Of a DNA stretch of 20,159 nucleotides, positions 10,437-16,753 are shown in pieces (the first letter of the stretch is position 1; each line of letters begins with the position of its first letter). This stretch comes from a bacterium (GTDB taxonomy: Bacteria > Methylomirabilota > Methylomirabilia > CAVQYV01): NCBI GenBank assembly GCA_043800755.1, contig JAZDMQ010000129.1, forward strand, positions 1-20,159, given 5' to 3'. The notes under the pieces were generated by a model that saw only the letters and a list, made by a program, of their open reading frames with translations, was not told the DNA's origin and did no database searches. The position numbers were made by a program, and so were the translations under genes.

Positions 10437-11453
10437 TTACAGTTTCCTTCCCGCCGCCTCCGCGAATGGCCTTAATTCCTGCATGAGAGTGGAAAACCGT
10501 TTGGGTTTCAGCGATTGGATCCCGTCGCTGAAGGCCTCCTCGGGTCGCATGTGTACCTCGATCATGAGGCCATCCGCGCCCGCGGCAATGGCTGCCTTGG
10601 CCATCGGAGCCACATATTCCCAGTGGCCAGTGCCATGGCTGGGATCCACGAAGATGGGCAGATGGGTCAGCTTACGCAGCACTGGGACAGCATTCAGGTC
10701 CAGGGTGAAGCGGGTCTCAGTCTCGAAGGTCCGGATCCCCCTTTCGCAGAGGATTACCTCGTAATTGCCTTGGGAGAGGATGTACTCCGCAGACATCAGG
10801 TATTCTTTGATGGTGGTGGCCATGCCGCGCTTCAGGAGCACCGGCTTGTTGATTTCTCCCAGAGAGCGGAGCAAGGCGAAGTTCTGGACATTTCTGGCCC
10901 CCACTTGCAGGATGTCGGCATATTGCCCAACCAATTCCACATCCTTGGGGTTGACCACCTCGGTGACGATATAAAGGCCGGTCATCTCCTTCGCCTGGGC
11001 CAAGAGCTTGAGCCCCTCCTCTTCCAGGCCCTGGAAGGCGTAGGGTGAGGTCCTGGGCTTGAAGGCCCCCCCGCGCAGGATGCTCGCACCCGCCTCCTTG
11101 ACCGCCAGGGCGGTCTCCACGAGCTGGGCCTCGCTCTCCACCGAGCAGGGTCCGGCGATGATCGTGAGGCGATCCCCTCCGATCTCCAGGTCGCCGAGCT
11201 TGATGACGGTTCTATCCGGCTTGAATTCGCGGCTCGCCAGCTTGAAGGGCTGGAGGATGGGGACCACGCTCTCCACCCCGGGAAGGGACTCTAAGGATTG
11301 GAGGCGGGCCTTTCCCCGTTCATCCCCTATGGCCCCCACGACATTTCTCTGGGTCCCGCGAATGATATGGGGTTGATATCCTAATTCGTTGATCCTGCGA
11401 ATCACTTCCTGCAACTGCTCCTCGGGAGCCCCGGCACGCATCACGATGATCAT
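10437..11453 (-). CDS. aroF: 3-deoxy-7-phosphoheptulonate (DAHP) synthase, type I-beta with N-terminal ACT-like regulatory domain
   Basis: MIIVMR...[19 protein letters not shown] regulatory domain. Catalytic motifs [68 protein letters not shown] at 11460-11465. Confidence 0.96.
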
Positions 11454-11465
11454 CTTTTTCCTCCT

Positions 11466-11496
11466 AATAAAATGGCCACGGATGGTCTCCGTGGCC
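11466..11496 (-). terminator. Leader terminator 2, immediately before the aroF RBS
   Basis: Minus strand GGCCACGGA-GACCA-TCCGTGGCC (perfect 9-bp stem) followed by ATTTTATT. Confidence 0.7.
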
Positions 11497-11520
11497 TTGC
11501 AGGATGAGCGGTGTATTCCG

Positions 11521-11565
11521 AAAACCAGAAGGGGCCACGGTTTTTGCCGTCTATCCCGTGGCCCC
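11521..11565 (-). terminator. Leader terminator 1 (conditional attenuator hairpin)
   Basis: Minus strand GGGGCCACGG-(15 nt loop)-CCGTGGCCCC (perfect 10-bp stem) followed by TTCTGGTTTT. The long loop and interrupted U-tract make it atypical. Confidence 0.6.
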
Positions 11566-11615
11566 GGGGATTCAGCTAAATGGGCGTGCCTCCCGGGGAG
11601 CCGAGGGATAGACGG
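11547..11615 (-). promoter_or_regulatory. Putative antiterminator hairpin
   Basis: Minus strand CCGTCTATCCC-TCGGCTCCCCGGG (11615-11592) pairs with CCCCGGGGCCAC-GGGATAGACGG (11569-11547), including a perfect 11-bp stem. This sequesters the 5' arm of terminator 1. Confidence 0.7.
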
Positions 11616-11664
11616 TCATAAAATAGAACTGCCAACACCGTAGCTTCCCTCGTTCCTGTGCCAA
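11572..11664 (-). CDS. Putative aromatic-amino-acid attenuation leader peptide (30 aa)
   Basis: GGAGG (11677-11673), 8 nt spacer, TTG start. Translation [30 protein letters not shown]. The W-Q-F-Y-F codons (11634-11620) lie just 5' of the antiterminator arm. Confidence 0.72.
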
Positions 11665-11706
11665 CGCAATTTCCTCCCTAAGTCCCTCTCCATCGAGATG
11701 TTATTT

Positions 11707-11736
11707 CCTTTATCACCCTTCTCTCCCTCTTGTCAA
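11707..11736 (-). promoter_or_regulatory. Sigma70-type promoter for the aroF leader
   Basis: Minus strand TTGACA (11736-11731), 18 nt, then TAAAGG preceded by TGn. Perfect -35 and weak -10, about 30 nt upstream of the leader RBS. Confidence 0.5.
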
Positions 11737-11822
11737 GCCCTTTTACCCGTTTATCCCCTGTTCGCCCCGCCGACCTCCATTCCTCCTCCCTTTTTCCTGC
11801 CGGGGGAATTCGGCGAAAACTC

Positions 11823-11852
11823 TTTACTCCTCACCGCTTTCATGGTAAAAAT
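11823..11852 (+). promoter_or_regulatory. Possible sigma70 promoter for the yebC-ruv-que operon
   Basis: TTTACT-17 nt-TAAAAA(T) with TGn extension. RBS AAGGAGG lies upstream of ATG 11905. Confidence 0.35.
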
Positions 11853-11904
11853 AGCAACATAGAACCTTGCGGTTGAAAGCCTTGATGAAAGGAGGGGGGC
11901 AGAC

Positions 11905-12654
11905 ATGTCAGGACACTCGAAATGGGCTGGAATCAAGCATAAGAAGGCGAAAGTGGATGCCCAGAGAGGGCGCATTTTTACGAAGTTAATCAAAGAGATC
12001 ACCGTGGCGGCCCGAGTGGGCGGCGGGGACCCGGAAGCAAACGCTCGTCTGCGCACGGCCATCCAGAACGCCAAGGCAGGCAACATGCCGCAGGAGAATA
12101 TCCAGCGAGCCATCAAGAAGGGAACCGGCGAGCTGCCTGGGGTCACCTATGAGGAATTCTCCTATGAGGGGTATGGACCAGGTGGGGTGGCGGTCCTGTT
12201 GGAGGTGATGACGGACAACCGGAATCGCACCGCCCCGGAGATCCGCAAGATCTTCGCCAAGAGCGGGGGTAATTTGGGAGAATTGGGGTGCGTGAGTTGG
12301 ATGTTTGAGAAAAAGGGCTTGATCTCCGTGGACATGAGCAAGGTCGATGAAGAAAAATTGATGACGGTTGCCCTGGACGCTAGAGCACTGGATATCAGCA
12401 CCGGGGAGTCAACCTATGATGTGACTGCCACCCCCAAGGAGTTTGAAGCGGTGAAGGGCGCGGTCGCAGCGGCGGGAATCGAGATCTCGGCAGCAGAGAT
12501 CACCATGCTCCCCCAGACCTACATCAAGCTGGACGGAAAACAGGCCCAACAAATGCTCCATCTCATGGAGGAGCTCGAAGAACATGAGGATGTCCAGAAT
12601 GTCTACGCCAATTTCGATATCCCCGAAGAGGTCATGTTGAAGATGAGCGCTTAG
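11905..12654 (+). CDS. yebC: YebC/PmpR (TACO1) family protein
   Basis: [56 protein letters not shown]. Confidence 0.97.
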
Positions 12655-12663
12655 GGAGGCCTG

Positions 12664-13161
12664 ATGTTAGTCCTGGGGATCGATCCCGGAACCCTCTGCA
12701 CGGGTTATGGGCTGGTGGATGGAGATCGGGACTCCGCTCGAGCCCTGCAACTGGGGACGATCAGGACCAGCCCCAAAGACCAGTTGCCCTTCCGCCTCCA
12801 AAAGATATATGACTCCCTGAGAGGAATCATCGATCGTTATCGGCCGGAATGGGTCGCCGTAGAATCCCCATTTGCTGCCAAGAATGTGCAGAGTGCCCTC
12901 AAGTTGGGACAATCCAAGGGGGTGGCGCTGTTGGCGGCAAGACACGGGGGGATTCCGATTGCGGAATATAGCCCCACCCAGGTCAAGTCCATGGTGGCTG
13001 GATACGGCCGGGCCGACAAGGAACAGATCCAACAGATGGTGAAAAGGACACTGGGGCTGGCCGAGCTTCCCAAGCCGGCGGATGTGGGGGACGCGCTGGC
13101 CATTGCCCTGTGTCACATCTATTGCCATTCGGGAAGGGAGAAGTTCGACCTCCGACCTTAA
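12664..13161 (+). CDS. ruvC: Holliday junction resolvase RuvC
   Basis: LGIDPG...TGYG, AVES, SALKLGQSKGV, EYSPTQVK, GYGRADKEQIQQMV, DVGDALAIALCH. Confidence 0.96.
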   Translation: MLVLGIDPGTLCTGYGLVDGDRDSARALQLGTIRTSPKDQLPFRLQKIYDSLRGIIDRYRPEWVAVESPFAAKNVQSALKLGQSKGVALLAARHGGIPIAEYSPTQVKSMVAGYGRADKEQIQQMVKRTLGLAELPKPADVGDALAIALCHIYCHSGREKFDLRP

Positions 13162-13165
13162 CCTT

Positions 13166-13768
13166 ATGATTGCCCAACTGCGAGGAAAGGTTTGCGCCAA
13201 GGCCCCCAATCTGGTCATCGTCGAGGTTGGAGGAGTCGGATTTCAGGTCTTCATTCCCCTCTCCACCTTCTATTGCCTCCCTGAACCAGGGGAGGAGGTC
13301 TTCCTCCTGACCCGCACCCACCTGAGAGAAGATGGCATCTCCCTCTACGGATTTCTCTCGGAGACGGAGAGGGCACTCTTTGATCTCCTCTGTGGGATCT
13401 CCGGGATCGGTCCTCGATTAGCCACCAATATCCTCTCTGGCATCTCCCCGGATGAGCTCATCGAAGCCCTATCCGCGGGGGATAGCGACCGCCTGCAAGC
13501 CATCCCCGGGGTAGGGAAGAAATTGGCGGGAAGGATGGCCTTGGAATTGAGGGAGAAGGTGAGGGGGATCTCAATTGGCGCGGCGCTGAAGGCGGAACCG
13601 GAGAAGGTAGAGAGGGACCAAATGGAGGACCTGGTCTCCGCCCTGGTCAATTTAGGATACCACCGCCAAAAAGCCTCCCGGGCCGCGAGCTCTGCTGTGC
13701 GGGCGGGAGGAGGTCAAATAGATTTCGAAGGGCTGATTAAAGAGGCCCTGCGGACCTTAACTTCATAA
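13166..13768 (+). CDS. ruvA: Holliday junction branch migration protein RuvA
   Basis: Start reassigned to ATG 13166 (MIAQLRGKV). [19 protein letters not shown], HhH motifs ISGIGPRLA and [17 protein letters not shown]. Confidence 0.95.
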
Positions 13769-14823
13769 TGTCTCGGCCTGAGGCTACCCGGAAGACCCAA
13801 GCGATGCCCCAAAGAATCGTCGACAAAGAGCCGTTGGAGGAGGATCGCAAGTACGATCAGACCCTGAGGCCTCATTCCTTCTCCGAGTATATCGGCCAGG
13901 AAAGGATCAAGGAGAACCTGCAGGTCTATATCGAGGCCGCCAAGGGCAGGGGGGAACCCCTGGATCACTGTCTTTTTTATGGGCCCCCGGGGCTAGGAAA
14001 GACGACCCTGGCCCACATCATCTCCGCGGAGATGCAGGTCTCTCTGCGGGGCACCTCTGGCCCCGCCATTGAAAAGACGGGAGACCTGGCGGCCATCCTC
14101 ACGAACCTCAAGGAAAACGATGTCCTCTTCATCGACGAAATCCATCGCCTGAGCCATGTGGTGGAGGAGATCCTCTATCCGGCCATGGAGGACTTCCAGT
14201 TGGACATCATCATCGGCCAGGGCCCTCACGCCCGCTCGGTCAAGCTCACCTTGCCCAAATTCACCCTGATTGGGGCTACCACCCGGGCAGGCCTATTGAC
14301 CTCCCCCCTGCGGGACCGCTTCGGGGTGGTGCATCGGCTGGATTATTATCGGGAGCAGGATATCGAATCGATCCTCCATCGAGCGGCGCGGATCATGAAG
14401 ATCTCCCTCAGCCCAGAGGGGGCTCTGACCCTGGCGGCCCGCTCCCGGGGGACCCCTAGGGTGGCGAATCGGCTGCTGCGCCGGGTCAGGGATTTTGCCG
14501 AGGTCTGGGGAAACGGGACCATCACCGAAGGTGTGGCGCGGGAGGCCCTCTCGCGCATGGAGATCGATGAAAAGGGATTCGAGGAGATGGATCGGCGCAT
14601 CCTCCTCACCATCATCGAAAAATTCTCTGGGGGGCCGGTGGGCGTGGAGACCGTGTCCGCCGCGGTAGGGGAGGAGAAGGACACGATCGAGGATGTCTAC
14701 GAGCCCTACCTGATCCAATTGGGTTATCTGGCGCGCACCCCTCGCGGTCGAACTGCCACCCGGCTGGCCTTTGAATACTTTGGCCTGCGGCCTCCTCGGA
14801 GCCTTCAGGATGAGCTACTCTGA
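13768..14823 (+). CDS. ruvB: Holliday junction branch migration helicase RuvB
   Basis: [12 protein letters not shown], Walker [10 protein letters not shown], Walker [43 protein letters not shown]. The start could alternatively be ATG 13804. Confidence 0.97.
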
Positions 14824-15604: not shown

Positions 15605-16753
15605 ATGCCTCCTCGCCTCCTCCTCTGGACCACTTTGTGTTTCCTCGTCCTGAGCCTCTGCCTCAGCCTCCCTGCCCAGGCGATGGAGGTGAGGGTCCTG
15701 ATCCTGGAATCCGCCTCCCAGCTGACGCTCTCCAGCGAGGGCACATTCAAGGTCCTGGGTGGCAACCCCTTGGACAATACCTACCAGTATCCCCCCGACC
15801 AGAAGGTCCTTATCCGGTCTGACCTCTTCGGCTTCAGGGTCGGAGGCCAGGCGGTATACGACGGTGACCTGAAGGTGGAGGCCGATTCGCCCTTCTTGAT
15901 CCAGCTAAACGACCGGGCCTACCGAGGCAGGGTGGAGATCCACAAAGAAAAGGACAAGGGGCTTCAGGCGGTCAATGTCCTCGATCTGGAAGAGTATCTG
16001 CGCGGGGTCATCAAGGAGGAGATCTCCCCCCAGTGGCCCCTGGAGGCCCTGAAGACCCAGGCGGTGGTGGCGCGCACCTTCGCACTGAGGCAGATCATGG
16101 ACAACCCGGACCAGCTATTCCACCTGAAATGCACCACCGACTCCCAGGTGTATGGGGGGAGGCAAGGAGAGGATTCGCGCTCCGATCTGGCGGTGCAGGA
16201 GACTTCAGGATTGGTATTGACCTACAAGGGAGAGCCCATTCCTGCCTTCTATCATGCAGCCTGCGGGGGCCATACTGAGGATGCCGCGGAGGTCTGGTCC
16301 TATAATCACACCTCGCTCCAGGGGGTCCTCTGCAGCTATTGTTGGACTCGTCCGGTCTACTCCTGGCAGGTCAGCCTCAAGCAGGAGGAGATCCGCCGGG
16401 CCCTCTTGCGATGGGGCTATCAGGTGGGAGAGATCGAGGCCATCACCCCCCTGGCCCGCACCAAGACCAACCGCATCCTCCGACTGGAGATCCGCCATGA
16501 CCTGGGAAGGACCCTGATGGAAGGGAAGCGATTTCGCCAGTACCTGGGATACGACCTGATTCGGAGCACCAATTTCTTCGTGAAGCGGGAGAATAGCGGC
16601 TTCTCCTTCCAGGGCAAGGGATGGGGCCACGGGGTGGGCCTTTGCCAATGGGGGGCGAAGGGCATGGCAGAGCGCGCCTTTTCTTATGAGGCGATCCTCC
16701 AGCACTATTATCCGGGCACCCGCCTCTCCCGCCTCGAGGAGATCGGGCATTGA
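15605..16753 (+). CDS. SpoIID/LytB domain protein (peptidoglycan lytic transglycosylase family)
   Basis: Signal peptide MPPRLLLWTTLCFLVLSLCLSLPAQA, YRGRVEI, VNVLDLEEYLRGVIKEE, EALKTQAVVARTFA, SQVYGG, FYHAACGGHTE, GWGHGVGLCQWGA, ILQHYYPG. Start is ATG 15605 or GTG 15593. Confidence 0.92.
   Translation: MPPRLLLWTTLCFLVLSLCLSLPAQAMEVRVLILESASQLTLSSEGTFKVLGGNPLDNTYQYPPDQKVLIRSDLFGFRVGGQAVYDGDLKVEADSPFLIQLNDRAYRGRVEIHKEKDKGLQAVNVLDLEEYLRGVIKEEISPQWPLEALKTQAVVARTFALRQIMDNPDQLFHLKCTTDSQVYGGRQGEDSRSDLAVQETSGLVLTYKGEPIPAFYHAACGGHTEDAAEVWSYNHTSLQGVLCSYCWTRPVYSWQVSLKQEEIRRALLRWGYQVGEIEAITPLARTKTNRILRLEIRHDLGRTLMEGKRFRQYLGYDLIRSTNFFVKRENSGFSFQGKGWGHGVGLCQWGAKGMAERAFSYEAILQHYYPGTRLSRLEEIGH

Follow-up and report, generated by a model that had tools for sequence, protein, structure and literature searches.

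In the window, by which we mean the whole 20,159-nt stretch of DNA analysed here, two hairpins with the same arm sequence stand between a short leader ORF rich in aromatic codons and the DAHP synthase gene aroF. Attenuators are usually drawn with a single terminator, and the locus raises the question whether both hairpins are stops and how one ribosome on one leader could govern the two. The first-pass annotation had proposed a cascade in which the position of the ribosome is relayed through two terminators. Our joint reading is that the element attenuates transcription of the DAHP synthase gene, being ribosome-mediated and built from several hairpins after the his type, and we regard this as fairly probable. 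Below we set out the segments, their occurrence in relatives, the predicted folds and the conservation of the pairings, and weigh other explanations against them.

Results

Organisation of the aroF leader region

All segments lie on the minus strand. Segment A (11615-11592) is the 5' arm of a first alternative helix; its partner, recognised like A itself by inverted repeats and in the folds, spans 11569-11547 and consists of B plus C (C, 11557-11547). CCGTCTATCCC of A pairs with GGGATAGACGG, the helix extends inward, and in the inverted-repeat search A was 84% complementary to 11547-11565 over 19 nt. B, GGGGCCACGG (11565-11556), which continues into GATAGACGG, is also the 5' arm of hairpin 1, whose 3' arm is D, CCGTGGCCCC (11540-11531), followed by the U-rich tail TTCTGGTTTT (11530-11521) with 7 T in 10 positions. 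Hairpin 2 consists of E, GGCCACGGA (11496-11488), and F, TCCGTGGCC (11482-11474), with GACCA as the loop between them and the tail ATTTTATT (11473-11466) behind them; the aroF Shine-Dalgarno sequence AGGAGG (11465-11460) comes next, ahead of the ATG at 11453. The inverted-repeat search of the window gave 100% complementarity for B:D (10 nt), for E:F (9 nt) and also for D:E (8 nt, with 36 nt separating the arms), D being at the same time the 5' arm of this third helix. The positions that the first-pass annotation had assigned to A, B, D, E and F are all exact in the window sequence, and the inverted repeats bear out its statement that B and E have an 8-mer in common whose complement lies in D and F. 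The 8-mer GGCCACGG and its complement occur six times in the window against 0.91 expected, a number reached in 0 of 100 shuffles, and four of the six copies fall inside a span of 90 nt (11474-11563). In the whole 2.43-Mb assembly the two hairpins of the window are the only ones made of this 8-mer, so that such hairpins are not a genome-wide repeat.

The leader ORF of 30 amino acids (11664-11572 in the ORF list) starts with TTG, 7 nt downstream of the Shine-Dalgarno sequence AGGGAGGA (11679-11672), and ends with TGA at 11574-11572. As B starts at 11565, the stop codon indeed lies 6 nt before B, as had been claimed. Codons 11 to 15 (TGG CAG TTC TAT TTT, 11634-11620) encode W11, Q12, F13, Y14 and F15. 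Leader ORFs rich in aromatic codons stand at the equivalent place in relatives, and the W/F/Y cluster is present again in the 44 aromatic-type leaders among them. The gene, with its Shine-Dalgarno sequence, occupies 10437-11465 and encodes 338 amino acids from the ATG at 11453. The product matched Pfam DAHP_synth_1 (6.9e-82) and DAHP_snth_FXD (2.7e-23) as well as NCBIfam NF006421 (1.2e-154) and is, judging from these profiles, a type I-beta DAHP synthase with an N-terminal ferredoxin-like domain. Two marks of a leader-peptide attenuator are therefore found at the locus, namely a short ORF with Shine-Dalgarno sequence and start codon just upstream of a biosynthetic gene, and a codon cluster for the end products of the pathway (W-Q-F-Y-F).

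A putative promoter upstream of the leader (11709-11736) was recognised by eye, with TTGACA at 11736-11731 as -35 box, a 16-nt spacer and GATAAA at 11714-11709 as -10 box. TTGACA is found at the equivalent relative position upstream in relatives, and a consensus promoter scan of the window returned no promoter by its own criteria. The plus-strand ORFs at 11905-14823, which by eye we take to be yebC, ruvC, ruvA and ruvB, are divergent from the aroF leader; the intergenic stretch 11737-11904 would need to carry promoters of both divergent directions.

Occurrence in related genomes

All 41 genomes examined from the same class have an aroF homologue; the unpublished genomes G030 and G039 are part of this tally. 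We read 400 nt upstream of 35 aroF starts in 30 loci, which had been picked by protein similarity and not by RNA. The full layout (aromatic leader ORF, A, hairpin 1 and hairpin 2) precedes 21 of the 35 starts, one of which, L014 from the unpublished G039, was left out of later counts. Hairpin 2 alone precedes four others (L008, L013, L015, L016), five (L009, L010, L017, L018, L019) have no leader and the gene follows another ORF, and five are second copies abutting a first aroF copy. All 20 tabulated leaders can form B:D with 8-13 bp, D:E with 7-13 bp and E:F with 9-14 bp. The layout is kept down to 65% aroF identity, and the five parts A, B+C, D, E and F are common to NC10/Methylomirabilota/Rokubacteria relatives. 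The four loci with hairpin 2 alone belong to genus g10; they have lost, or keep only remnants of, the leader, A and hairpin 1, in what looks like a deletion, and the other g10 leaders read (L006, L007, L011, L029) retain the full layout. At L025 (genome G024) an insertion of about 300 nt, in which a unit of about 100 nt occurs in two direct copies, separates hairpin 2 from the start of aroF.

From B to F, 17 sequences were aligned as A7, with L002 excluded since MAFFT had put its D in the wrong place, and L022 and L029 excluded for being near-duplicates. The MAFFT alignments A1, A2, A5 and A6, in which arm B or D was out of register in several sequences, were not used for counts. A first model, R1, built from eight sequences of family f2, included reverse-strand rows and gave the window only 15.4 bits; it was replaced by R2, a covariance model trained on A7, which had matches in 111 of the 151 genomes of the class: 73 of 74 in f2, 4 of 20 in f3, 13 of 15 in f4, 6 of 6 in f6, 9 of 21 in f7, 0 of 8 in f8 and 2 of 2 in f9. 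These tallies take in the unpublished G030, G039, G066, G089 and G130, from which no sequence was used. Alignment A9, fitted to the B:D plus E:F model, is a non-random sample: among the 150 R2 matches listed, it draws on the 30 best and on 60 hand-chosen regions that cover second matches and small families. Its 94 rows were realigned to R2 without L069 (a near-copy of L068) and L002 (below threshold), and one row is reverse-strand, which leaves 93 true elements from 74 genomes. Since R2 was trained on the arms, this set is biased towards like arms, and counts from it describe constancy within the family and not an unbiased rule. A generic hairpin-and-relay classifier run on 80 loci misclassified the known positive L125, and its counts were discarded.

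The occurrence data bear on the simplest alternative, that there is no switch and that chance or selfish palindromic repeats lie beside a short ORF that is untranslated. Translation of the leader and termination are predicted here from sequence, and Rfam gave no match in the whole window at gathering thresholds, Trp_leader, His_leader and Phe_leader included, both of which leave some room for it. We nevertheless consider it highly improbable, because hairpins of the 8-mer are found nowhere else in the genome, because R2 matches most genomes of the class and in the loci read always just upstream of genes, and because the layout persists to such low aroF identity.

Predicted folding with and without a ribosome

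The folds of the window are equilibrium snapshots at chosen transcript lengths, in which a ribosome was represented by masking the RNA up to 12 nt past the hungry codon. The A:(B+C) hairpin has -44.0 kcal/mol, D:E has -20.8 versus -19.4 kcal/mol for E:F. With the ribosome masked at W11, F13 or Y14, A5:C formed with p 0.67-1.0 and B:D with p 0 at the time when hairpin 1 would act, and in a transcript ending before F the same stalls gave D:E with p 0.99. Once F was present, the equilibrium favoured E:F (p 0.99) over D:E (p 0), so the second step of a relay must be kinetic. A stall at F15 hides six bases of A, and the masked fold then gave p 0.25 for A5:C and p 0.42 for B:D; in the model, a ribosome at F15 no longer blocks B:D. 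The folding check suggested in the first-pass annotation, a ribosome masked at codons 11-15, thus came out in favour of the cascade for W11, F13 and Y14, where A captures B+C and D pairs with E before F is made, and against it for F15 and for the equilibrium with F present. Apart from these two points, exclusive alternative structures, one of them favoured upon a ribosome stall, are found both in silico and by comparison, as is expected of an attenuator.

A ribosome on the stop codon hides four bases of B and leaves a 6-bp B:D helix at some distance from the U tract; in a transcript that has not yet reached F, D:E then has p 0.45. Because the stop-codon ribosome weakens B:D in this way, the OFF state may leak at the first stop, and hairpin 2 may, according to these folds, matter most as a stop immune to the terminating ribosome. 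In the ribosome-free RNA of the window, A:(B+C) and E:F are formed and D is paired to the upstream stretch GGGAAGCUACGGUG (11650-11637), which corresponds to leader codons 5-10. Among 24 elements outside f2, 21 fold into B:D plus E:F as free RNA; when these 24 were searched for pairing between D and the 5' part of the leader, to see whether it is conserved, the fold of the window alone showed it.

Conservation of the alternative pairings

In A7 the OFF structure (B:D plus E:F) is 98.6% paired, with four pairs changed on both sides, and in A9 it is 99.5% paired. D:E is 97% paired in A7, where the 7-bp core pairs in 17 of 17 sequences and one pair is variable, and 99.1% paired in A9, where the sole core mismatch belongs to the reverse-strand row. 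What distinguishes a his-type relay, the ability of D to pair with E, is therefore present with a paired core in all true A9 rows. As six of the seven core pairs of D:E are invariant or nearly so and one is often variable, formal covariation is thin. The A:(B+C) duplex, in which the leader end pairs with B+C, can be formed in 93 of 93 elements with -24.7 to -43 kcal/mol and with median z-scores against shuffles of -3.45, -3.9 and -2.3 in three leader classes; as its sequences differ between these classes, the helix covaries. The ON-state pairing of A with 11569-11547, as postulated in the first-pass annotation, is thus supported by the masked folds as well as by the comparison.

The one variable position of the D:E core is occupied in the 93 elements by U-A (50), U-G (23) or C-G (20) in D and E. 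When all four arms are considered in the order B-D-E-F, the combination A-T-A-T occurs 41 times, G-C-G-C and A-T-G-C 20 times each, G-T-A-T eight times, G-T-G-C twice and two others once each. Where E has A, D has C in 0 of 50 elements. Where B has G and E has A, D stays U in 8 of 8 elements from at least four genera, and 20 of the 22 elements with G in both B and E have C in D. The base in D appears to follow E when B changes, a pattern that is suggestive but no statistical proof, since the relatives are not independent and only a handful of separate events is estimated.

The two hairpins as putative terminators

The terminator scan of the window listed E:F only, with 9 pairs (7 of them G-C), a loop of 5 and the tail ATTTTATT. 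E:F is 99.3% paired, counted in cells over the 93 distinct rows of A9, and together with its U tract it forms a conserved putative intrinsic terminator between leader and aroF, at which transcription would end. Hairpin 1 was not listed because its 15-nt loop exceeds the limit of 8 in the scan. It has a 10-bp stem with -23.6 kcal/mol and a tail with 7 T in 10, but the U tract is interrupted and the loop is large; whether hairpin 1 of the window truly terminates transcription we judge to be about even. In the lineage of the window, B:D with its U tract is probably a first, weaker stop. The OFF state had been described as two terminators, B:D and E:F. Both pairings are conserved and E:F fits the terminator pattern, but hairpin 1 fails the scan, so that this description is supported for the pairing and for the sequence pattern of the second terminator, and is about as likely as not for the first.

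The relatives divide sharply in the 12 nt after hairpin 1, which contain 6-11 T in 24 of 24 elements from f1, f3, f4, f5, f6, f7 and f9, versus 0-4 T in 69 of 69 elements from f2. An exception to the U tract outside f2, standing outside this table of 24, is the closest relative of the window, L002 (aroF 91% identical), whose hairpin 1 is followed by 1 T in 10. Due to the missing U tract, hairpin 1 is not a terminator in f2, and since f2 has nonetheless retained the leader together with A and hairpin 1, D:E is the sole link from the leader to E:F. The claim that the signal reaches hairpin 2 via D:E is strengthened by this and by the conservation of all four pairings, and is weakened by the preference of the equilibrium for E:F.

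An alternative reading confines regulation to hairpin 1 as a classical three-part switch and regards hairpin 2 as an unregulated tandem copy, which serves as a leaky back-up or a stabilising 5' stem and makes D:E a by-product. It would account for the victory of E:F over D:E at equilibrium. It would also accommodate two loci in which we recognised by eye only one hairpin, of the GGCCACGG type and with U tract, behind an aromatic leader and A (L122:227-370 and L146:230-340; aroF identity 72-73%), and the four loci with hairpin 2 alone before aroF and neither leader nor D, where either hairpin 2 is not a strong terminator or the gene copies are shut down. The f2 elements are hard to reconcile with it, because a hairpin 1 without U tract cannot be the regulated terminator for which leader and A were kept. 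If a G+C-rich hairpin of 9 bp with a U tract stood unregulated beside the Shine-Dalgarno sequence, expression would, moreover, be lowered at all times, and the arms are compatible throughout the class, with no D:E mismatch in true rows and with D tracking E when B changes. We therefore consider it unlikely and prefer the relay through D:E.

Further elements of the class

The genome carries a second attenuator of this type at locus L101 (G000:C87:15973-16256, with the R2 match at 16141-16224), which has a TTGACA promoter, the leader VENLSAIFGLGCTFWYYYYS and U tracts after both hairpins. In L101 and in its counterpart in genome G001, B and E contain GCCGTGG and D contains CCACGGC, and D:E is a perfect helix of 8 bp. 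Compared with the aroF leader, the arms of L101 differ by a two-base swap that has been kept in step in three arms. F of L101 reads CCGCGGC, so that E pairs with F via a U-G wobble but with D via A-U. The gene downstream of L101 belongs to the DeoC family (Pfam). The counterpart gene in G001 (L202) encodes an ADH synthase, and the gene after it encodes 3-dehydroquinate synthase II; this pair is the alternative entry into the shikimate pathway. With aroF included, aromatic leaders thus seem to stand before both routes by which the pathway is entered.

The two-hairpin module also stands behind leaders of other codon composition. At 38 f2 loci in L062-L116 (e.g. L065:752-830) it follows a conserved Leu/Ile-rich leader with a consensus like MLSLGLILLALPGLPGASA, in 35 of the 38 upstream of a pyruvate phosphate dikinase (PPDK) gene, so that a leader of branched-chain type precedes a gene of central carbon metabolism. 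Val-rich leaders such as ...SVVVAVVRACPRAGGV precede it at L073, L096, L076, L086, L102-L106, L111 and L114, and the genes that follow encode a sigma-54 activator (f7), a small Cys-rich ORF (f4) or malate synthase and isocitrate lyase (f6).

That arms so nearly invariant in 93 elements precede unrelated genes, among them those for DAHP synthase, ADH synthase, PPDK, the sigma-54 activator, malate synthase and isocitrate lyase, could also mean that the GCCACGG/CCGTGGC stems are sites for a common RNA- or DNA-binding regulator, with protein recognition as the cause of the near-invariance. A base with two pairing partners is, however, expected to evolve slowly without any protein, and the changes observed keep the pairing on the sense strand via G-U, where DNA or the other strand would have C-A mismatches. 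Leader codons matched to the pathway and the exclusive A:(B+C) helix already account for control. A common regulator is thus quite improbable in our view, and we retain the attenuator reading.

Metatranscriptome contigs

Four metatranscriptome runs contain the stretch in the form of contigs. Two of these, X2 record 5 (11295-11559) and X3 record 9 (11408-11557), run from the tail of hairpin 1 through hairpin 2 into the beginning of aroF. They fit read-through molecules, and carry-over of DNA is also possible. We used bridging alone, since contig ends (X4 record 13, 11516-11699; X1 record 4, ending at 11551) are not usable as RNA ends and uncovered stretches carry no meaning.

Discussion

We propose that a ribosome on the 30-codon leader would sense how much charged Trp, Phe and Tyr tRNA is available. 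When it reaches the stop codon, A could not hold B+C, so that B:D and E:F would form; E:F with its U tract would terminate transcription, and B:D would serve as anti-antiterminator. When it stalls at W11, F13 or Y14, A would remain free to capture B+C, and D would be released. D would pair with E as soon as E has been made, F would be single-stranded while RNA polymerase passes the U tract, and aroF would be transcribed. Comparison and equilibrium snapshots give good support to this relay, as far as sequence-based work can. What we infer in this model is that transcription ends at either hairpin, that D:E kinetically precedes E:F, and that the attenuator responds to amino-acid supply.

The shared arms suggest how such an arrangement could arise. 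A tandem duplication of a single terminator hairpin would yield the two-terminator form seen in the window, and the 3' arm of the first copy would automatically be an antiterminator of the second, as the D:E complementarity would come free with the duplication. The single-hairpin form of L122 and L146 may be the ancestral state. If the first U tract was lost afterwards, the f2 (Rokubacteria-type) form, a pure relay, would result. The class thus seems to show three stages, with one terminator, with the terminator duplicated and with the first copy reduced to a relay, and could illustrate from nature how multi-hairpin attenuators of the his type arise. The module would have been reused behind leaders of differing codon make-up, for both entry routes into the shikimate pathway and also before the genes for PPDK, malate synthase, isocitrate lyase and the sigma-54 activator. 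Our joint reading in its wider form, that the duplicated terminator is a self-relaying module and the standard output of Methylomirabilota leaders, acting through two serial stops or, in f2, as a pure relay, is put forward tentatively and as having somewhat less than an even chance.

One ribosome signal appears to be relayed through a chain of hairpins to two serial stops, which would multiply the OFF state without cost to the ON state. For the annotation of Methylomirabilota genomes, the elements represent an unannotated RNA family. In the literature searched, outside of which lie most subscription journals, we found neither leader-peptide attenuation in Methylomirabilota/Rokubacteria nor tandem terminators under leader-peptide attenuation.

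Among known systems, the trp attenuator of E. coli (trpL, RF00513) is the textbook case in which the position of the ribosome determines whether an antiterminator or a terminator hairpin forms. Although less stable than the terminator, the antiterminator prevails there by forming first; the second step proposed here would likewise be kinetic. Unlike the present element, trpL has four segments, one terminator and no relay via a second pair of arms. In Corynebacterium glutamicum aroR-aroF, a DAHP synthase gene is preceded by a leader peptide containing Phe-Tyr-Phe, and ribosome stalling at these codons raises read-through (PMC11802643, citing Neshat et al. 2014). By this published description, with which alone the comparison is made, the two systems share an aromatic leader before a DAHP synthase gene and, on our model, would share read-through driven by stalling. 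They differ in phylum, and the summary of the C. glutamicum system given there mentions no second terminator and no relay.

The closest likeness is to the attenuator of the his operon (hisL, Salmonella enterica/E. coli). As outlined in PMC4046918, it comprises a leader peptide and six RNA segments that form two alternative sets of hairpins, B:C plus D:E for read-through and C:D plus E:F for termination, and untranslated RNA terminates. To the extent of this outline, the topology is the same as that of A:(B+C) plus D:E versus B:D plus E:F in our element, whereas hisL has seven His codons in place of W/F/Y codons and the target here is DAHP synthase; the two are not similar in sequence, Rfam His_leader being unmatched in the window. 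Unlike in hisL, the middle hairpin and the terminator have identical arm sequence here, and the middle hairpin carries a U tract that makes it terminator-like, in the window as in all 24 elements tabulated outside f2. The logic of the relay is thus already known from the his attenuator; what is new is the terminator-like middle hairpin and the arms that it shares with the terminator.
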